Shown here: positions 4,553 through 49,390 of the stretch, piece by piece
Layout of the letters: every line of letters begins with the position of its first letter
Numbering within the stretch: the first letter of the stretch is position 1
DNA from: Limnospira fusiformis SAG 85.79
Lineage (GTDB): Bacteria > Cyanobacteriota > Cyanobacteriia > Cyanobacteriales > Microcoleaceae
NCBI RefSeq assembly: GCF_012516315.1
Contig: NZ_CP051185.1
Coordinates: forward strand, 3,413,363-3,477,362
DNA: 64,000 nucleotides
Reading direction: 5' to 3'
Translations under genes and position numbers: made by a program
Notes under the pieces: generated by a model
What the model was told of the DNA's origin: nothing
What the model saw: only the letters and a program-made list of their open reading frames with translations
Databases searched by the model: none

Positions 4553-5977
4553 ATGTCAGAGCAAAAATTTGGTGTCATTGGTCTAGCGGTCATGGGTGAA
4601 AACCTCGCCCTAAATGTCGAACGCAATGGCTTTCCTGTCGCTGTTTATAACCGCACCAGTGCCAAAACTGATGAGTTTATGCAAAAACGCGCCCCAGGAA
4701 AAAATGTCAAACCCGCCTACAGCCTCGAAGAATTTGTCCAGTCCCTGGAACGTCCCCGGCGTATCCTCGTCATGGTCAAAGCCGGTAAACCTGTCGATGC
4801 CGTCATTGACCAATTGAAACCCCTGTTGGATCAGGATGATATGATTATCGACGGGGGAAATTCTCTCTATGAGGACACAGAGAGGCGCACCAAGGAACTC
4901 GAAGCTACTGGTTTAGGGTTTATGGGTATGGGTGTCAGTGGTGGCGAGGAAGGCGCATTATGGGGTCCTAGTTTAATGCCCGGAGGAACCGAGAATTCCT
5001 ATCAGGCCCTTGAACCCATTTTAACTAAAATTGCCGCTCAAGTTGATGACGGCCCCTGTGTCACTTATATTGGCCCTGGCGGTGCCGGTCACTATGTCAA
5101 AATGGTTCACAACGGCATTGAATATGGCGATATGCAGCTGATCGCAGAAGCCTATGACCTCCTGCGTAATGTCATTGGCTTGAATGAACAACAGCTTTAT
5201 GAGGTCTTTGCTGAGTGGAACACCACCGATGAGTTAAACTCTTTTCTGGTTGAAATTACTGCCGATATTTTTAAGCAAAAAGACCCCGAAACTGGCAAGC
5301 CTCTCGTTGACTTGATTTTGGACTCGGCTGGACAAAAAGGAACCGGACGCTGGACCGTCGTTAGTGCTTTGGAGTTGGGCGTTTCTATCCCTACCATTAC
5401 TGCTGCTGTGAATAGCCGGATTATTTCTTCCTATAAGGATGAACGGGTAGCCGCCTCTCAGCAATTGCCGGGACCTAGTGCTAATTTTGATGGCGATGTT
5501 AGCGCTTTTATTAATAAGGTTCGTGATGCCTTGTACTGCTCGAAAATCTGTTCTTATGCTCAGGGTATGGCGCTTATTGGTAAGGCTTCTCAGGAGTTTA
5601 ATTATCATCTGAATTTGGGCGAAATTGCCCGCATTTGGAAAGGTGGCTGCATTATTCGGGCGGGATTTTTGAATAAAATTAAGCAGGCTTATGACCAAAA
5701 TCCACAATTGCCTAATTTGCTACTTGCGCCCGAGTTTAAGCAGACTATTCTTGACCGTCAGTCCGCTTGGCGGGAAGTTCTCGTCACTGCCAATACTATG
5801 GGTATTCCCGTCCCGGCTTTTAGTGCTTCTTTGGATTATTTTGATAGTTATCGCCGCGTGAGTTTACCTCAAAATTTAACTCAAGCACAACGAGACTATT
5901 TTGGCGCTCATACTTATGAGCGTATCGATAAACCCCGGGGGCAGTTTTTCCATACTGAATGGACTAATGTTGATTAA
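4553..5977 (+). CDS. gnd: 6-phosphogluconate dehydrogenase (decarboxylating)
   Basis: N-terminal NADP-binding fold [15 protein letters not shown], 474 aa, conserved Gnd core throughout. Confidence 0.95.
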
Positions 5978-6056
5978 TTCTCAGGTTTAGTCCCTTCGTG
6001 ATTAACTGAGTTTTCCCTCACCCACAAACCCCCCACCTCTGGGGGGCTGCTTTATG

Positions 6057-7196
6057 CTATAAGGTGGCTATACATTCTATTTGCACTCGTGCATTTTCCG
6101 GGAGTTGCGACACCGCTACACAGGTACAAATTGGCAGATTTCCATCGGTGAAATAGCTAGAGTAAACGCTATTCATGCGATCGCTTTCCTGCAAGTCTAC
6201 CATAAAAATCGTCGTTTTCACCACCTTAGACCAACCTACTCCCGCCGCCGTTAAAATCGCGCCAATATTATCCATCACTCGCCGCGTCTGGTCGGTAATT
6301 TCGTCATCGCATAACATAATATTTAGGCGGGGGGCTATGGCTATTTGACCCGCAATATATATACAGTCATTAATGATAACTGCTTGGTGAGGACTATTAG
6401 GAGATTTCGGCGCGTTTTCTGTATTAATAAATTCTGCCTTAGTCGAGTTTCTCCCAGACTCCCCCACTTCCATAATCAAATCATCATCGAGGTCATAAAC
6501 TTCACCGTCTGGCATAATTGCGCCAATGATTTGAGCTTCTTGATAGTTAGTTAGGTACAAATTGGCATCAGTTAAATTGGCTCCGACAAAACTCGCATTT
6601 TTAACTTTGGCTTTCATTAGATTAGCTGTTTTGATGTTAGCTTGCTTGAAATTAGCCCCCTCTAAACAAGTCTCTCTCAAGATGGCTTCCTCTAGATTTG
6701 CCATTTTAAAATTACATTTTTTGCAGTTAGCTGCAGCCAAGTTGATGCGGAATCCATAAATGCCAGAAAAATTACATCCTTCTAAATCCAAATACGACCA
6801 ATTTATGGAAAACATTTTACTACCAGAAAAATTAACATTTTTGATTATAGCTTTAGCCATGTTAATATCATCAAATCGACTAGATTCCTCGAATTGAGCC
6901 CCGGTTAAATCTGCCCCAGAAAAATCTATGGTTTGCAAATCAGACTTGATAAAACAGGCGTTAGTTAAGTTGGCATTAACAAATTGTACGGATTGGAAAG
7001 TTGACCCACTAAAGTTACAATTCTTGAGATTAGCATGATCAAAGGTCATCTCTTGAAAGTCAGAGTTGCTTAAATCAGCACCTTCTAAGTTAATCTCACT
7101 CAAATTACATCCTTTCCAAGTAGTATAAGATAAATCGACTCCGGGGAAGTCGCGTTCACCTAGTTTGTATCTGTCAAACAATTTTTGTGCTTCCAT
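6057..7196 (-). CDS. pentapeptide-repeat protein fused to a C-terminal RidA/YjgF (enamine/imine deaminase) domain, copy 1
   Basis: N-terminal half is A(N/D)LxxxxF pentapeptide repeats. C-terminal ~125 aa is RidA-like (HQAVIINDCIYIAGQIAI...DNIGAILTAAG...TTIFM). Confidence 0.8.
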   Translation of the reverse strand: MEAQKLFDRYKLGERDFPGVDLSYTTWKGCNLSEINLEGADLSNSDFQEMTFDHANLKNCNFSGSTFQSVQFVNANLTNACFIKSDLQTIDFSGADLTGAQFEESSRFDDINMAKAIIKNVNFSGSKMFSINWSYLDLEGCNFSGIYGFRINLAAANCKKCNFKMANLEEAILRETCLEGANFKQANIKTANLMKAKVKNASFVGANLTDANLYLTNYQEAQIIGAIMPDGEVYDLDDDLIMEVGESGRNSTKAEFINTENAPKSPNSPHQAVIINDCIYIAGQIAIAPRLNIMLCDDEITDQTRRVMDNIGAILTAAGVGWSKVVKTTIFMVDLQESDRMNSVYSSYFTDGNLPICTCVAVSQLPENARVQIECIATL

Positions 7197-7301
7197 TTTC
7201 AGTTAGTCCTGGTAGATGTGGTTTTGACCCTATCCCAGAGTAGATATCTGCTGGGTATCGCACTATCAATTATATCTGATTATACGCCAATAGTGCATTT
7301 T

Positions 7302-8441
7302 TTAGGTGCTGGCTATACATTGGATTTGGACTCGGGCATTTTCCGGGAGTTGCGACACGGCTACACAGGTACAAATTGGCAGATTTTCATTTGTGAAATA
7401 GCTAGAGTAAACGCTATTCATGCGATCGCTTTCCTGCAAGTTTACCATAAAAATGGTGGTGGTAACCACCTTAGACCAACCTACTCCCGCCGCCGTTAAA
7501 ATCGCGCCAATATTATCCATAACTCGCCGCGTCTGGTCGGTAATTTCGTCATCACATAACATAATATTTAGGCGGGGGTCTATCGCTATTTGACCCGCAA
7601 TATATATACAGTCATTAATGATAACCGCTTGGTGAGGACTATTAGGAGATTTCGGCGCGTTTTCTGTATTAATAAATTCTGCCTTAGTCGAGTTTCCCCC
7701 AGACTCCCCCCCTTCCACAATCGAATCATCATCAGGGTCGTAAACTTCACCGTCTGGCATAATTGCGCCAATGATTTGAGCTTCTTGATAGTTAGTTAGG
7801 TACGAATTGACATCAGTTAAATCGGCTCCTATAAAACTAGCATTTTTAAGTTTTGCTTTCATCAGATTAGCTTTTTTGAGCTTGGCTTGCTTTAAATTAG
7901 CCCCCTCTAAACAAGCCTCTCTGAAGATGGCATTTTCGAGGTTTGCCAGTTTAAAATTGCAGTTTTTGCAGTTAGTTTCTGTCCAATTAGTTCCATGTAA
8001 ATTAGTTTTATAAAAGCTACATCCTTCTAAGTCTAAAAAAGACCAGTTTACGTCGCTAAATTTAACTTTGTCAAAATTGACATTTTTGGTGATGGCTTGA
8101 GCGATTTCACAACAACTAAATTGACGACATTCTCCGAATTGCGCTCCGGTTAAATCTGCCCCAGAAAAATCTATGCCGCGCAAATCAGACTGGATAAAAT
8201 AGGCGTTAGTTAAATCGGCATTAACAAATTTTACGGATTGGAAATTTGACCCACTAAAGTTACAATTCTTGAGATTAGCCCTATTAAAAACCATATTTTT
8301 CAATTCAGAGTTGCTGAAATCAGCACCTTCTAGGTTAATCTCACTCAAATTACATCCTGGCCAATTAGTATCAGATAAATCGACTCCGGGGAAGTCGCGT
8401 TCACCTTGTCTGTATCTGTCAATTAATTCTTGTGGTTTCAT
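7302..8441 (-). CDS. pentapeptide-repeat::RidA fusion protein, copy 2
   Basis: Paralog of 6057..7196. The RidA half is near-identical and the pentapeptide half is diverged. Confidence 0.8.
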   Translation of the reverse strand: MKPQELIDRYRQGERDFPGVDLSDTNWPGCNLSEINLEGADFSNSELKNMVFNRANLKNCNFSGSNFQSVKFVNADLTNAYFIQSDLRGIDFSGADLTGAQFGECRQFSCCEIAQAITKNVNFDKVKFSDVNWSFLDLEGCSFYKTNLHGTNWTETNCKNCNFKLANLENAIFREACLEGANLKQAKLKKANLMKAKLKNASFIGADLTDVNSYLTNYQEAQIIGAIMPDGEVYDPDDDSIVEGGESGGNSTKAEFINTENAPKSPNSPHQAVIINDCIYIAGQIAIDPRLNIMLCDDEITDQTRRVMDNIGAILTAAGVGWSKVVTTTIFMVNLQESDRMNSVYSSYFTNENLPICTCVAVSQLPENARVQIQCIAST

Positions 8442-8546
8442 TTTCAGTTAGTCCTGGTAGATGTGGTTTTGAGCCTATCCCAGAGTAGATATCTGCTGGG
8501 GATGGCACTATCAATTATATCTGATTATACCCCCATAGTGGATTTT

Positions 8547-9686
8547 TTAGGTGCTGGCTATACATTGGATTTGCACTCGTGCATTTTCCGGGAGTTGCGA
8601 CACCGCTACACAGGTACAAATTGGCAGATTTCCATCCGTGAAATAGCTAGAGTAAACGCTATTCATGCGATCGCTTTCCTGCAAGTTTACCATAAAAATG
8701 GTGGTGTTCACCACCTTAGACCAACCTACTCCCGCCGCCGTTAAAATCGCGCCAATATTATCCATAACTCGCCGCGTCTGGTCCGTAATTTCGTCATCAC
8801 ATAACATAATATTTAGGCGGGGGTCTATCGCTATTTGACCCGCAATATATATAAAGCCATTAATGATAACTGCTTGGTGAGGACTATTAGGAGATTTCGG
8901 CGCGTTTTCTGTATTAATAAATACTGCCTTAGTCGAGTTTACCCCAGACTCCACCCCTTCCACAATCGAATAATCATCAGGGTCGTAAACTTCACCGTCT
9001 GGCATAATTGCGCCAATTATTTCAGCTTCTTGATAGTTAGACGCATAAACATAAGCATTAGTTAAATTGGCTCCGATAAAACTAGCATTTTTAACTTTGG
9101 CTTTCATCAGATTAGCTTTTTTGAGGTTGGCTTGCTTTAAATTAGCTCCCTCTAAACAAGTGTCTTTTAAGATAGCATTTTCGAGAATTGCCATTTTAAA
9201 ATTGCAGTTTTTGCAGTTAGAATTAGCTAAGTTTATGCAGGTTCCATTGATGCGAGAAAAATTACAGCCTTCTAAATCAAAAAGCGACCACTTTATCCCA
9301 GTCATATTAATGCCAGAAAAATTGACATTTTTGATAATAGCTTTAGCCATATTAATATCACTAAATCGACTAGATTCCTGGAATTGAACCCCGGTTAAAT
9401 CTGCCCCAGAAAAATCTATGGCGCGCAAATCAGACTCGATAAAACAGGCGTTAGTTAAATCGGCATTAACAAATTCTACGAATTGCAAAGTTGACCCACT
9501 AAAGTTACAATTCTTGAGATTAGCCCTATTAAAAGTCATATTTTTAAAGTCAGAGTTGCTGAAATCAGCACCTTCTAAGTTAATCTCACTCAAATTACAT
9601 CCTTGCCAAGTAGTATAAGATAAATCGACTCCGGGGAAGTCGCGTTCACCTAGTTTGTATTTGTCAAGCAATTCTTGTGGTTGCAT
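8547..9686 (-). CDS. pentapeptide-repeat::RidA fusion protein, copy 3
   Basis: Paralog of 6057..7196, with the same 1245-bp phasing. Confidence 0.8.
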   Translation of the reverse strand: MQPQELLDKYKLGERDFPGVDLSYTTWQGCNLSEINLEGADFSNSDFKNMTFNRANLKNCNFSGSTLQFVEFVNADLTNACFIESDLRAIDFSGADLTGVQFQESSRFSDINMAKAIIKNVNFSGINMTGIKWSLFDLEGCNFSRINGTCINLANSNCKNCNFKMAILENAILKDTCLEGANLKQANLKKANLMKAKVKNASFIGANLTNAYVYASNYQEAEIIGAIMPDGEVYDPDDYSIVEGVESGVNSTKAVFINTENAPKSPNSPHQAVIINGFIYIAGQIAIDPRLNIMLCDDEITDQTRRVMDNIGAILTAAGVGWSKVVNTTIFMVNLQESDRMNSVYSSYFTDGNLPICTCVAVSQLPENARVQIQCIAST

Positions 9687-10050
9687 TTTCAGTTAGTCCT
9701 GGTAGATGTGGTTTTGAGCCTATCCCAGAGTAGATATCTGCTGGGGATGGCACTATCAATTATATCTGATTATACGCCCATAGTGGATTTTTTAGGTGCT
9801 GGCTATACATCAGATTTCTACTCGTGTATTTGGGTTGGGGTGTACCGACGGAGATTATACCATTTTTAAGGTTGGGTGCGCCACAATGATTAATTATTAT
9901 AAAAAACCCCGATTTTGTAGGTGGTGATTTGATGGGGGGAAAACTGTATATCTGTGGATTGGGTCAGGTGAAATCATCCTAACCTACCTTAGACCCACCT
10001 AGTCCCACGACTACATAACAAAATAACCAGTCAGCAAGATATGGGCGGAT

Positions 10051-13373: not shown

Positions 13374-14066
13374 TTAGGGATTGATTGACAATCTTTGTAC
13401 AAATTCCTGATATTCTGGGGTAGCTATTCCTTCCTGTAACTTAGCTAAAACCTGCGCCATATTACCCGATAATAGCGCATTTACATCTAACCATAAACCT
13501 GGGAAAAATGTACTTTTCAGACAACCAGAATTATCTATCTGTTGTAGCTGATAGCGTCCTTCACAGAGTACATACCAGCGAAATTCTGACCCATCAACCA
13601 GCCAGACTAAATATTCCCTTACACCATTACGGCGATAGGCGTGTAGCTTATCGTGGAGGTCTTTTGAGGCGCTACTGGCTGCAATTTCTACAATCAATTC
13701 TGGCGGTCCTTCTATATAATCATCCTCACTAATGCGCGACTGTCCCCCCGCCGCCTCTTCGATACGCAATAAAGCATCTGGTTGCGGTTCATTATCCATG
13801 TCTAGGCGAACACTTGCGTTATCCGCCACTTGAGTCTCTGGTGTAGAAGCTGCATAAACTTGTAACCAAGTGATGATTTTGGCGTGAGGGTCGGCGTGTT
13901 GTCGGACCCTAACAGGGGATGTCATATAAACGACTCCTTCCACTAATTCAGCCTTTTTTATATCCGGTAGCAAACTATAGCGCCGCTCAAATTCTATCAT
14001 CGATAAGCGATCGCCATTTTCCAAAGTTGGGAGAATTGTCTGAGAACCTGATGGAGTATAATTCAT
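13374..14066 (-). CDS. Uma2 family endonuclease (DUF820), copy A
   Basis: Typical Uma2 N-terminus (LSMIEFERRY...AELVEGVVYMTSP) and C-terminal core. 230 aa. Confidence 0.8.
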   Translation of the reverse strand: MNYTPSGSQTILPTLENGDRLSMIEFERRYSLLPDIKKAELVEGVVYMTSPVRVRQHADPHAKIITWLQVYAASTPETQVADNASVRLDMDNEPQPDALLRIEEAAGGQSRISEDDYIEGPPELIVEIAASSASKDLHDKLHAYRRNGVREYLVWLVDGSEFRWYVLCEGRYQLQQIDNSGCLKSTFFPGLWLDVNALLSGNMAQVLAKLQEGIATPEYQEFVQRLSINP

Positions 14067-14149: not shown

Positions 14150-14842
14150 TTAGGGATTGATTGACAATCTTTGTACAAATTCCTGATATTCTGGGGTAGC
14201 TATTCCTTCCTGTAACTTAGCTAAAACCTGCGCCATATTACCCGATAATAGCGCATTTACATCTAACCATAAACCTGGGAAAAATGTACTTTTCAGACAA
14301 CCAGAATTATCTATCTGTTGTAGCTGATAGCGTCCTTCACAGAGTACATACCAGCGAAATTCTGACTCATCAACCAGCCAGACTAAATATTCCCTTACAC
14401 CATTACGGCGATAGGCGTGTAGCTTATCGTGGAGGTCTTTTGAGGCGCTACTGGCTGCAATTTCTACAATCAATTCTGGCGGTCCTTCTATATAATCATC
14501 CTCACTAATGCGCGACTGTCCCCCCCCCGCCTCTTCGATACGCAATAAAGCATCTGGTTGCGGTTCATTATCCATGTCTAGGCGAACACTGGTGTTGTCA
14601 CAAACCATAATGTTAGGCGTAAAACTGCGGTAAAAAACCAGCCAACCCATAACATCACTATGAGGTTTTCCGTGTTGTCGGACCCTAACAGGGGATGTCA
14701 TATAAACGACTCCTTCCACTAATTCAGCCTTTTTTATGTCCGGTAGCAAACTATAGCGCCGCTCAAATTCTATCATCGATAAGCGATCGCCATTTTCCAA
14801 AGTTGGGAGAATTGTCTGAGAACCTGATGGAGTATAATTCAT
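14150..14842 (-). CDS. Uma2 family endonuclease (DUF820), copy B
   Basis: Near-identical to copy A except for a ~30-aa patch (GKPHSDVMGWLVFYRSFTPNIMVCDNTS versus ADPHAKIITWLQVYAASTPETQVADNAS). Confidence 0.8.
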   Translation of the reverse strand: MNYTPSGSQTILPTLENGDRLSMIEFERRYSLLPDIKKAELVEGVVYMTSPVRVRQHGKPHSDVMGWLVFYRSFTPNIMVCDNTSVRLDMDNEPQPDALLRIEEAGGGQSRISEDDYIEGPPELIVEIAASSASKDLHDKLHAYRRNGVREYLVWLVDESEFRWYVLCEGRYQLQQIDNSGCLKSTFFPGLWLDVNALLSGNMAQVLAKLQEGIATPEYQEFVQRLSINP

Positions 14843-15611: not shown

Positions 15612-16737
15612 CTAAGCAGACTGATTATCAATCACCTGATTTTCTTGGCGTAGATAGGCTTGAATAAACCCATCCAATTCACCATTCATCACATCATTAA
15701 TAGCCGTCGTTTCCTCACCAGTCCGCAAATCTTTAACCATCTGATAGGGATGAAATACATAGTTGCGGATTTGATTTCCCCAAGCCGCCTCTACCAGGTC
15801 GCCGCGAATTTCTGCGATCGCCTGCGCCCTTTGTTCCTGCGCCACGACCAATAACTTAGCTTTCAGTAAAGCCATGGCTTTTTCCCGGTTTTGTAGTTGG
15901 CTACGTTCCTGCGTACAACGAACCGCTATCCCCGTGGGAATATGAACTATGCGGACCGCCGTTTCCACCTTATTGACATTCTGACCACCCTTTCCCCCAG
16001 CGCGAGACGTGGTAATTTCCAGGTCTTTTTCCGGGATATCTAAATTTATAGCCCCTTCATCCAGAATCGGCATGATTTCCACTCCCGCGAAACTGGTCTG
16101 GCGTTTACCATTGGCGTTAAATGGGGAAATTCTGACCAGGCGATGGGTTCCTTTTTCTGCCTTTAAATAGCCATAGGCGTAGGGTCCCTCCATTTCCAAA
16201 GTAGCAGATTTAATCCCCGCCTCGTCTCCTTCCGAAATTTCCGCCAGGTGGACCTTATAGCCTTGGGCTTCCCCCCAACGGGTGTACATTCGTAATAGCA
16301 TTTCCGCCCAGTCTTGGGCATCCGTACCCCCCGCCCCAGCGTTAATGGTCAAAACCGCCCCACTGCGATCGTAGGGACCCGATAGCAGTTGCTGTAACTC
16401 CCAGCGATCGATATCCCGACCGAGATGGACTACATTAGACTCAGCCTCCTGTCGTAGGGACTCATCATCCTCTAACTCTAGTAACTCTGCGATCGCCCCA
16501 GTATCTTCCAGCGTCTTTCGCCAGTCCTGCTGTTGTTGCAAAACCGATTTAAGGTCACTCAAAGTCTGGAGCGTCTTTTGTGCCTGGGTTTGATCATCCC
16601 AAAAGTTCGGTTGAGCTGCTAATTGTTCCAAGTCTTGAATTTTGGCTTCAATGGCGGGTACGTCAAAGATACTCCTGGGTTTTACCCAGGCGGTCTGCCA
16701 ACAATTCGATTTCTCGTTTAATCTCTGCCACTTCCAT
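15612..16737 (-). CDS. prfB: peptide chain release factor 2, with programmed +1 ribosomal frameshift
   Basis: GGQ motif and RF2 core in the 339-aa ORF. A 24-codon leader ORF starts with ATG at 16737 ([24 protein letters not shown]) and ends in the canonical CTT TGA C shift site (TGA at 16663..16665). The +1 frame continues DVPAIEAK... into the main ORF. Confidence 0.9.
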
Positions 16738-49315: not shown

Positions 49316-49390
49316 CCCTATCCCATAACCCCTATGCCATAGGCCATAACCCATAACCCCTATCCCATAACCCCTATGCCATAGGCCAAT
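49316..49390. repeat. short tandem repeat (CCCATAA / CCCCTAT[C/G]CCATAGG units)
   Basis: cccataacccctatgccataggccataacccataacccctatcccataacccctatgccatagg; STRR-like heptamer-based repeats. Confidence 0.6.

Follow-up and report, generated by a model that had tools for sequence, protein, structure and literature searches.

A tandem family of pentapeptide-helix proteins carrying an arginine-less Rid domain in Limnospira

The subject of this analysis is an array of tandem genes in a 64,000-nucleotide stretch of the Limnospira fusiformis SAG 85.79 genome (RefSeq assembly GCF_012516315.1, contig NZ_CP051185.1, positions 3,413,363 to 3,477,362 of the forward strand), referred to below as the window, whose own numbering is used throughout. 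The array represents a Limnospira-specific tandem family of three, in one lineage two, paralogous cytoplasmic proteins, each of which joins a pentapeptide-repeat beta-helix to a domain of the Rid (YjgF/L-PSP) fold. Judged from sequence, the object appears to be a Rid pseudo-enzyme attached to a pentapeptide helix in a tandem family that evolves in concert. As to function, the reading that we hold most probable, with roughly even confidence, is that of a non-deaminase Rid trimer hub that displays variable protein-binding helices.

Each of the three proteins consists of a pentapeptide beta-helix of about 11 coils (residues 1-230), a disordered linker (236-252) and a Rid domain (256-379). A preliminary description of this locus had proposed just these two halves, and its domain content is borne out by Pfam, which places Pentapeptide at residues ~15-225 (E-values from 1e-35 to 1e-43) and Ribonuc_L-PSP at 260-378 (E ~1e-30), with bit scores of 118-144 for PF00805 (cut-off 20.2) and of 102-105 for PF01042 (cut-off 27.3). 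In the AlphaFold2 (AF2) monomer model the helix (residues 1-220) is predicted with pLDDT >90 and shows a strand every five residues; its top PDB matches found with Foldseek are HetL (3du1, the best) and the solenoids derived from Np275/276. The HetL model NF047416 is also among the top NCBIfam matches, though it reaches only 103-106 bits against a cut-off of 260, and the Alr5209 model NF052603 likewise stays below its cut-off of 125 (103-110 bits).

The same description had called the helix DNA-mimic-like, which would make the proteins relatives in function of Qnr or MfpA, protecting gyrase or another DNA-binding enzyme. Such a role could draw on the shared beta-helical fold and on weak matches to the Qnr and MfpA models, but these scores fall far below the respective cut-offs (31-64 bits vs. 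240-500 for the Qnr-family models, and 40-50 vs. 360 for MfpA). Furthermore, the net charge of the helix is just -3 to -5 over 229 residues (pI 5.0-5.3, from the composition of the array proteins alone), the nearest structure is HetL and not Qnr, AlbG or MfpA, and oligomerisation would presumably proceed via the trimeric Rid domain instead of a Qnr-type C-terminal dimer module. DNA mimicry therefore appears very unlikely, and the label is not supported.

Could three such similar genes have been produced by an assembler from a single one? The chance is negligible: apart from the general risk that goes with tandem repeats, nothing favours it, whereas the three paralogues differ from one another by 10-14% in nucleotides and each carries a distinct cassette (see below), which assembler expansion cannot produce. 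Moreover, the same array, in the same order, is found between ylmH/recJ and gnd (glgP) in six other Limnospira assemblies, two of them complete genomes (FO818640.1 and CP028914.1) and four independent drafts, so that it is not an artefact. Counting the window, five assemblies have three copies (L. indica PCC 8005 [FO818640.1], CP028914.1, L. maxima CS-328, an L. fusiformis draft and the window itself), and two have two copies (L. fusiformis CCALA 023 and one related assembly). The preliminary description's proposal of repeated unequal crossover fits the two to three copies seen among assemblies, the chimeric nature of the first gene at the two-copy locus (a fusion of copies 1 and 2), and the relic of a further copy upstream of the array. 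This relic, a stub, is still present at the two-copy locus; indeed, it occurs in every Limnospira assembly examined, the divergent two-copy lineage included, and must therefore be old. Copy number is thus polymorphic, and the array is older than the split of the three-copy and two-copy lineages, between which gnd shows a synonymous divergence (dS) of 0.216. All 19 copies in the seven assemblies have intact frames, including the 12 examples of copies 1 and 2 (379-380 residues). The window is collinear with PCC 8005, CP028914.1 and CS-328 at 98.4-99.3% identity, the database proteins closest to the array proteins are all from Limnospira (Arthrospira; 77-93% identity), and an exact-sequence look-up of the window's array protein returned no database record.

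The Rid half and the origin of the Cys-type gene

The Rid domain superimposes on structures of the RidA family with TM scores of 0.87-0.93 and root-mean-square deviations of 1.5-1.8 Å (Foldseek). It has nonetheless lost residues that characterise RidA. When positions were mapped through HMMER alignments to solved RidAs and a MAFFT alignment with E. coli RidA (E. coli numbering), the place of Arg105 turned out to be taken by Cys357 in all three copies of the window and in all 20 Limnospira alleles; Gln372 replaces Glu120, and Pro269, with His270 next to it, stands at Tyr17, a position that is Pro or His among the Limnospira alleles. Retained are Gly31, Asn88 and Cys107 (Cys359 here), which leaves the motif Pro-Ile-Cys-Thr-Cys. 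Arg105 binds the carboxylate of the substrate and is needed for imine hydrolysis in plant and Salmonella RidA (PMC4433059, PMC5619798); its replacement by Ala nearly eliminates RidA activity, and Rid4-7 proteins without Arg105 show no imine hydrolase activity (PMC4433059). By contrast, Salmonella RidA was little affected when Tyr17 or Glu120 was changed to Ala (PMC4433059), and hence the changes at these two positions weigh less than that of Arg105.

The preliminary description had taken the Rid half for an imine deaminase. Because Arg105 is Cys in every Limnospira allele, and Gln and Pro/His stand in for Glu120 and Tyr17, it is not a bona fide module of this kind, and the claim was given up. 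One may still ask whether the array encodes three isozymes of a RidA-type enamine/imine deaminase, each targeted by its helix to particular pyridoxal-phosphate enzymes and specialised by client. The TIGR00004 model ('Rid family detoxifying hydrolase') is matched at 112-117 bits, slightly above its cut-off of 106.25, the Rid fold is well kept (TM ~0.9), the three residues named above persist, and the sister fusions that keep the arginine (see below) are, to judge by their residues, very probably deaminases. Set against this are the universal loss of a required arginine, the inactivity of Rid subfamilies that lack it (PMC4433059, PMC5619798), and the faster evolution of these Rid domains compared with their arginine-bearing neighbours, which together make deaminase isozymes distinctly unlikely. 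The domain is not simply falling apart, however. Among the paralogues, the ratio of nonsynonymous to synonymous divergence (dN/dS) in the Rid half is only 0.19-0.29, with dS of 0.09-0.18, and 105 of its 124 sites are invariant in the 20 alleles; by these measures, it is under purifying selection and is still a functional domain.

How distinctive are these replacements? The signature N-S-P/H/R…C…C…Q, which defines what we call the Cys type, is found in 20/20 Limnospira alleles and, outside the genus, in Lyngbya sp. CCY1209, Capilliphycus salinus and a metagenomic protein. The canonical Y…R…E of the Arg type occurs in 44 of the 45 other fusion clusters, the exception (P0057) having Leu at the Arg position, and is kept in all 30 fused loci as well as in all 51 single-domain Rid genes that were fetched. 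Among the best 150 of 9508 matches in 1.84 billion representative proteins, the signature recurred only in one fragment from the same clade, and identity outside the Cys-type clade did not exceed 49%.

The preliminary description had also considered the fusion of the two domains unusual, and in this it erred. Proteins with both domains form about 65 clusters from Nostocales and Oscillatoriales, and the full-length fusion is encoded at no fewer than 30 species-level loci of filamentous cyanobacteria, each with a single fused gene (one genome was taken per species, and Limnospira is not among the loci listed). The genera concerned include Planktothrix, Microcoleus, Nostoc, Rivularia, Calothrix, Argonema, Trichormus, Aphanizomenon and others, and the NCBI name of these fusions is 'Rid family detoxifying hydrolase'. 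It is the triplication, not the fusion, that is uncommon. A literature search found no paper on pentapeptide-RidA fusions or on these Arthrospira/Limnospira genes.

The origin of the Cys-type gene can be read from the three outgroup genomes, Lyngbya CCY1209, Capilliphycus salinus and the metagenomic contig (regions 7001-9566, 7001-10021 and 7001-9767 of the respective loci), in which it is directly followed by a second, longer fusion of 460-477 residues, in Lyngbya after a gap of 1 nt. The second fusion has GPYNQ…PARAC…VEIDC and thus the canonical residues, scores 156 bits with PF01042 as opposed to ~103 for the Cys-type genes (no Pfam match is on record for its gene), and is itself followed by an S8 peptidase gene in all three outgroups. 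Since the derived signature is shared, and since the pair adjoins in three outgroup genomes, the comparisons indicate that the Cys-type gene had a single origin as a tandem paralogue of the Arg-type fusion, in an ancestor within the Oscillatoriales, and was amplified to an array in Limnospira. Over the same pair of species, Rid identity is 57% for the Cys type vs. 75% for the Arg type, meaning that the former has evolved faster.

The neighbourhoods of these genes were also considered as clues to function and were set aside. The outgroup order of aminoacyl-tRNA synthetase, SH3, Cys-type, Arg-type and S8 peptidase genes is part of a synteny that continues into unrelated genes, and the Nostocales arrangement of malQ, a NUDIX-like gene and the fusion is likewise ordinary synteny, because a long block of unrelated housekeeping genes travels with it. 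For the record, within ~0.1-2.5 kb upstream of the Arg-type fusion, 19 loci from Nostocales and some Oscillatoriales have a NUDIX-like gene (~145 residues) on the same strand, and 18 loci also have a divergently transcribed 4-alpha-glucanotransferase gene (malQ). The Limnospira array adjoins glgP and gnd; this recurring link to glycogen and pentose-phosphate metabolism may be mere synteny. In one Phormidiaceae genome, an Arg-type fusion (7124-8242 of that locus) and a stand-alone canonical RidA gene (9182-9571) lie ~1 kb apart on the same strand.

Diversification of the helices

Copy 3 is frozen, whereas copies 1 and 2 vary even between nearly clonal strains, amino-acid changes being in excess. 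Within the window, the Rid halves of the paralogues are 93.8-96.8% identical in nucleotides (93.5-96.0% in amino acids) and the spacers 94.3-99.0%, in keeping with the near-identity reported for them earlier. The pentapeptide halves, by contrast, share 82-87% of nucleotides and 69.6-78.7% of amino acids, so that the ~70% identity given for them before applies to two of the three pairs when amino acids are compared, but not to nucleotides. Neither is the divergence even within this half, as it peaks in a hypervariable (HV) cassette: nucleotide identity between paralogues is 88-92% for residues 1-100 and 88-91% for residues 177-230, but only 68-82% for residues 101-176 (49-74% in amino acids), with copy 2 being the most divergent of the three in this cassette (68-69% in nucleotides to the other two). 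An even spread of differences along the gene, which would have spoken against diversification of a single domain, is thus not seen.

Diversification is indeed concentrated in the pentapeptide half, with the Rid half constrained, as had been supposed; what did not survive is the notion of plain drift after duplication. The cassette has a dS of 0.44-0.81, a dN of 0.17-0.35 and a dN/dS of 0.4-0.5, whereas dS in its flanks is only 0.05-0.18 (0.05-0.13 in the N-terminal segment, where dN/dS is 1.1-1.9). This makes the cassette far older than the sequences on either side of it or, equivalently, means that these are being homogenised. The closest pair of copies also shifts along the gene: it is formed by copies 1 and 2 over the spacer, the linker and the Rid half, by copies 1 and 3 over the cassette, and by copies 2 and 3 at residues 177-230. 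Site patterns are heterogeneous (chi-square 45, p=2e-6). Strain differences in copies 1 and 2 are mostly states that already exist in a paralogue, arranged in short clustered patches, which makes short-tract gene conversion a main source, with some new mutations added. Taken together, segment-specific dS, shifting topology and paralogue-derived patches argue for gene conversion and mosaicism, and the array has the hallmarks of a concerted tandem family, namely copy-number polymorphism, a chimera, dS that depends on the segment, and patchy sharing of states. The picture that these comparisons support is one of unequal crossover altering copy number and of short-tract conversion homogenising the Rid half and spacers and shuffling patches of the helix. 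A mechanism resembling a diversity-generating retroelement, with copy 3 as template and copies 1 and 2 as variable repeats, was considered and rejected: differences from copy 3 by site (A 24-33, T 17-33, G 23-31, C 22-29) show no adenine bias, and no reverse transcriptase is found among the genes within ~8 kb of the array.

To place the variation on the helix, 20 alleles were mapped coil by coil after correction of a one-residue register shift at about residue 107; faces and inward or outward positions were assigned by sequence register and DSSP pattern, rather than by computed solvent exposure. One face hardly varies at all (mean entropy 0-0.59 bits), whereas the adjacent third and fourth faces do so over the full length of the helix, most of all in coils 5-7 (peak 1.8 bits). 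Within the N-terminal segment, inward positions have 0.14-0.23 bits and outward positions 0.50-0.73 bits. Such a pattern is what one expects of a folded helix with one surface that is apparently diversifying.

Copy 3 has the same types of beta-helix and linker module in all seven assemblies and is 99.8-100% identical in PCC 8005, CP028914 and CS-328. Copies 1 and 2, for their part, fall at the 95% level into eight types of N-terminal segment and seven of cassette; copy 1 is the most variable between strains (94-96.7% in nucleotides to its positional orthologues), with N-terminal or HV modules swapped. In five strains whose gnd genes differ at 0-1 of 1425 nt, and whose copy 3 is likewise nearly identical, the first 100 codons of copies 1 and 2 show up to 30 nonsynonymous vs. 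4 synonymous differences, and the HV cassette of copy 2 in near-clonal strains, summed over pairs, 54 vs. 3. Over roughly independent branches, the helix of copies 1 and 2 has 91.5 nonsynonymous against 12.5 synonymous differences (binomial P=0.022 vs. neutrality), compared with 14 and 15 in the Rid half (helix vs. Rid, Fisher p=1.3e-5). The corresponding polymorphism ratio (pN/pS) is ~1-2 in the N-terminal segment of copies 1 and 2 and 0.26-0.51 in their Rid halves. Even in the two-copy lineage, the helix of copy 3 is 98.7-100% identical over ~750 nt, where the only differences are 3 synonymous ones and none is nonsynonymous (window 6250-7150 vs. 6038-7177 of the two-copy locus), against 91-97% for gnd (window 4553-5977) and the rest of the flank, and the edge of this island coincides with the 3' end of copy 3. 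A recent sweep, a transfer or unusual constraint may account for it.

Are copies 1 and 2 then simply functionless duplicates under relaxed constraint, subject to neutral conversion churn, with copy 3 alone being of consequence? The pN/pS of ~1-2 in their N-terminal segment, the conservation of copy 3 only and the existence of a lineage with two copies would all be compatible with this. Yet every one of the 12 examples of these copies is intact, their Rid halves remain constrained, and the outward positions of two faces vary where inward positions and one entire face are conserved; because this pattern fits a folded, working helix rather than a decaying one, drift is disfavoured and seems to us unlikely.

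Alternatively, the array could be a conflict locus directed against phages or mobile elements, in which the helices of copies 1 and 2 would recognise fast-evolving foreign proteins, with copy 3 and the Rid hub as the constant part. Hypervariability of these two copies among strains with identical neighbouring gnd, the excess of amino-acid changes on one side of the helix, the cassette-like gene-conversion mosaics and the variable copy number are features that such a locus might have. The neighbours, on the other hand, are housekeeping genes (ylmH, recJ, gnd, glgP) and not a defence island, the array proteins have no recognisable effector domain, and the single match in PADLOC, to PD-T4-2_B at 93-96 bits, is one that proteins of the Rid fold give in general, so that a conflict role appears rather unlikely. 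Membership of PD-T4-2 was itself rejected, for only positions 165-293 of the 294-position profile match and there is no partner gene. The same profile (PDLC04030) scores 112 bits with E. coli RidA and 219 bits with a cyanobacterial RidA, and the PD-T4-2 papers name DUF262 and HEPN domains, not Rid. Since its C-terminal part matches ordinary RidAs, any protein with a Rid domain will be flagged, which is a trap for automated annotation of defence genes.

What, then, might be gained by varying the helix on an almost constant Rid half? In the reading favoured here, that of a non-deaminase hub, the Rid domain would have lost the deamination of 2-aminoacrylate and other imines and would serve for trimerisation, possibly also as a sensor of ligand, metal or redox state via its Cys-x-Cys pocket. 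The three gene products would probably co-assemble, as their Rid halves have been kept ~94-96% identical, and each trimer would then show three beta-helices, the variable faces of which may bind one or more protein partners. This last step leans on HetL, the closest solved helix, which functions through binding to HetR (PMC7476756). The gain from diversification would be a more finely tuned or a broader recognition of partners. A bolder variant sees in the array a combinatorial recognition device, in which hetero-trimers combine the constant helix of copy 3 with helices re-patterned by gene conversion on a pseudo-enzyme hub, with Cys-x-Cys perhaps acting as a redox or metal switch; we regard it as rather improbable, though if true, it would amount to a cytoplasmic counterpart of antigenic-variation systems that works by shuffling cassettes.

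Several points weigh against the non-deaminase hub. Trimerisation, mixed trimers and partner binding are each something that we infer, and a strict 1:1:1 heterotrimer cannot be essential given that a two-copy lineage exists. The nonsynonymous excess in copies 1 and 2 is no clean test of selection, as it is partly imported from paralogues and its P is only 0.022. The TIGR00004 score above cut-off, together with the retained Gly31, Asn88 and Cys107, makes some altered catalysis possible, and Ser naturally stands in place of the Arg in about 10% of RidA proteins, to an effect that is not known (PMC4433059). A Cys2His metal site is made less plausible by the lack of conservation of His270 in Capilliphycus. 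Lastly, no stand-alone RidA or Arg-type fusion named as Limnospira appeared among the matches listed (120 per search, out of at most 8000 candidates with shared words, one search being filled with RidAs of >80% identity), and the 64-kb window contains no other Rid gene.

Whichever function applies, the array has practical implications. In every genome of Limnospira (the commercial 'Spirulina'), its genes are labelled either 'Rid family detoxifying hydrolase' or else 'endoribonuclease L-PSP'. Since the residue on which this activity depends is missing, it is probably a mistake for metabolic reconstructions to include them as RidA. They offer a datable case of a RidA domain turned into a non-Arg Rid, with the ancestral Arg type still adjoining in sister genera, and the Cys/Arg pair is a tractable one for studying the role of arginine-less Rid proteins, an open question for Rid4-Rid7. 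Cyanobacteria have many pentapeptide proteins, nearly all of unknown function, and here the allele series marks a putative binding surface. Finally, with two hypervariable copies and one ultra-conserved copy, the array can serve as a strain marker and as a compact model of diversification driven by gene conversion.

Array layout and neighbouring sequences

The three intact open reading frames (ORFs), all on the minus strand, follow one another with a period of exactly 1245 nt according to direct-repeat analysis, each unit being made up of a coding sequence (CDS) of 1140 nt and a spacer of 105 nt; the repeated block spans 6065-9831. The last three codons of copy 3 deviate (…ATL* vs. …AST* elsewhere) because the repeat stops at 6065. 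Positions are collected in Table 1. Of the layout proposed earlier, the three complete 1245-bp units and the stub of a fourth copy stand, the stub being 40 nt long, however, and not ~45; it agrees with copy 1 at 31 of its final 35 nt and has an in-frame internal stop.

Table 1. Positions of the array and its elements in the window
Feature	Position	Strand	Remarks
Copy 1 (C)	8547-9686	-	379 aa; upstream gene, closest to ylmH; ORF, Pfam/NCBIfam and AF2 model
Copy 2 (B)	7302-8441	-	379 aa; middle gene; architecture as in the other copies
Copy 3 (A)	6057-7196	-	379 aa; downstream gene, closest to gnd
HV cassette (aa 101-176)	copy 1 9159-9386; copy 2 7914-8141; copy 3 6669-6896	-	beta-helix coils 5-8
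Rid (YjgF/L-PSP fold) domain (aa 256-379)	copy 1 8550-8921; copy 2 7305-7676; copy 3 6060-6431	-	
Cys357-Thr-Cys359 codons	copy 1 8610-8618; copy 2 7365-7373; copy 3 6120-6128	-	codons checked
Gln372 codon	copy 1 8571-8573; copy 2 7326-7328; copy 3 6081-6083	-	
105-nt spacers	9687-9791 (5' of copy 1); 8442-8546; 7197-7301	-	94-99% identical among themselves
Two TATAAT boxes	9769-9774; 9759-9764	-	in spacer 5' of copy 1; noted by eye
Stub (relic)	9792-9831	-	3' end of a further upstream copy; last 40 CDS nt including TAA
Extended -10-like motif TGGTATAAT	9854-9862	-	upstream of stub; sequence read directly
G+C-rich hairpin CCCCCCACCTCTGGGGGG	6029-6046	none	between copy 3 and convergent gnd; terminator-like match

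The extended -10-like motif TGGTATAAT may be regarded as a candidate promoter for the entire array, and the hairpin CCCCCCACCTCTGGGGGG is likely to be a bidirectional terminator that closes it. A scan for consensus promoters, which needs a -35 box, flagged no -35/-10 promoter in the spacers, for which reason a promoter role of the two TATAAT boxes remains a candidate one. The spacers were also considered as carriers of an RNA element, and this was rejected: their folding is not significant (z = -0.03), and a search of the array against Rfam identified no family, the sole sub-threshold match being a chance one within a CDS.

A few observations concern the surroundings of the array. At the two-copy locus, ylmH and the stub are separated by an additional insert (~4560-4640 there) that has no equivalent in the window; it holds a perfect hairpin, CCCCTCTCCCCTTGGGAGAGGGG, and resembles a small repetitive element. 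Just past recJ, two tandem 230-residue genes of the Uma2 family (putatively restriction-endonuclease-like) lie on the minus strand at 13374-14066 and 14150-14842; in off-diagonal BLAST matches these copies are ~94% alike vs. CP028914 and ~99% vs. PCC 8005, and the pair may undergo gene conversion. On the gnd side, PCC 8005 carries a fragment of 76 residues resembling the C-terminus of Cas12f1/TnpB (15943-16173 there) directly after glgP and before a gene for an AAA_15 ATPase; the fragment is not called in CP028914 or CS-328, and the counterpart region of the window is ~1276-1744. The glgP ORF encodes 854 residues in the window and PCC 8005, and 845 in other strains. Farther away, a 14-nt tandem repeat, CCCTATCCCATAAC, is present in 4.9 copies at 49316-49383 and is the window's only high-scoring short tandem repeat.

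Comparison with known systems

The nearest relatives of the array proteins are the Arg-type fusions, with which they share the two-domain architecture, the junction motif GAIMPDGEVY and homology over the full length (33-40% identity). As the immediate neighbour of the Cys-type gene in the three outgroups, the Arg-type fusion is its direct ancestor by tandem duplication. Unlike the Limnospira array, Arg-type fusions are single-copy at each locus examined, keep Gly-Pro-Tyr17, Arg105, Cys107 and Glu120, and have longer and more regular helices; they are also annotated as '2-iminobutanoate/2-iminopropanoate deaminase'.

With regard to the helix, HetL, Alr5209, Np275-276 and Rfr provide the closest comparison, HetL being the best structural match, and the HetL and Alr5209 models ranking among the top ones for the N-terminal 100-150 residues. 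Proteins of the HetL type, however, have no Rid domain, and the array proteins, at 103-110 bits, do not reach the cut-offs of 260 and 125. Limnospira is not known to form heterocysts.

As for the Rid half, the RidA/YjgF/YER057c/UK114 family has the same fold and is 38-46% identical in its archaeal and bacterial members, but the array differs from it in the replacement of Arg by Cys, of Glu120 by Gln and of Tyr17 by Pro/His, and in the attachment of the domain to a helix of 230 residues. The Rid4-Rid7 groups resemble the array in having a Rid fold without Arg105 and are predicted not to hydrolyse imines, their role being unknown (PMC4433059). They are, in contrast, old and separate lineages with Trp or a variable residue at the Arg position and with Glu120 retained, whereas the Limnospira Rid is a recent offshoot within the RidA subfamily that has Cys at the Arg position and Gln at 120.

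A further parallel is 3x-RidA, in which, as proposed here for the array, a Rid trimer is formed from three linked and diverging units, some domains of which have lost the Arg (PMC4433059). Many 3x-RidA proteins have one domain with Leu, Ser, Gln, Ala or Cys at the position of Arg105. Partial loss of the catalytic site within Rid trimers seems, from such sequences, to be common. The two systems differ in that 3x-RidA is one chain devoid of pentapeptide helices, whereas the array consists of three separate genes whose products would probably co-assemble.

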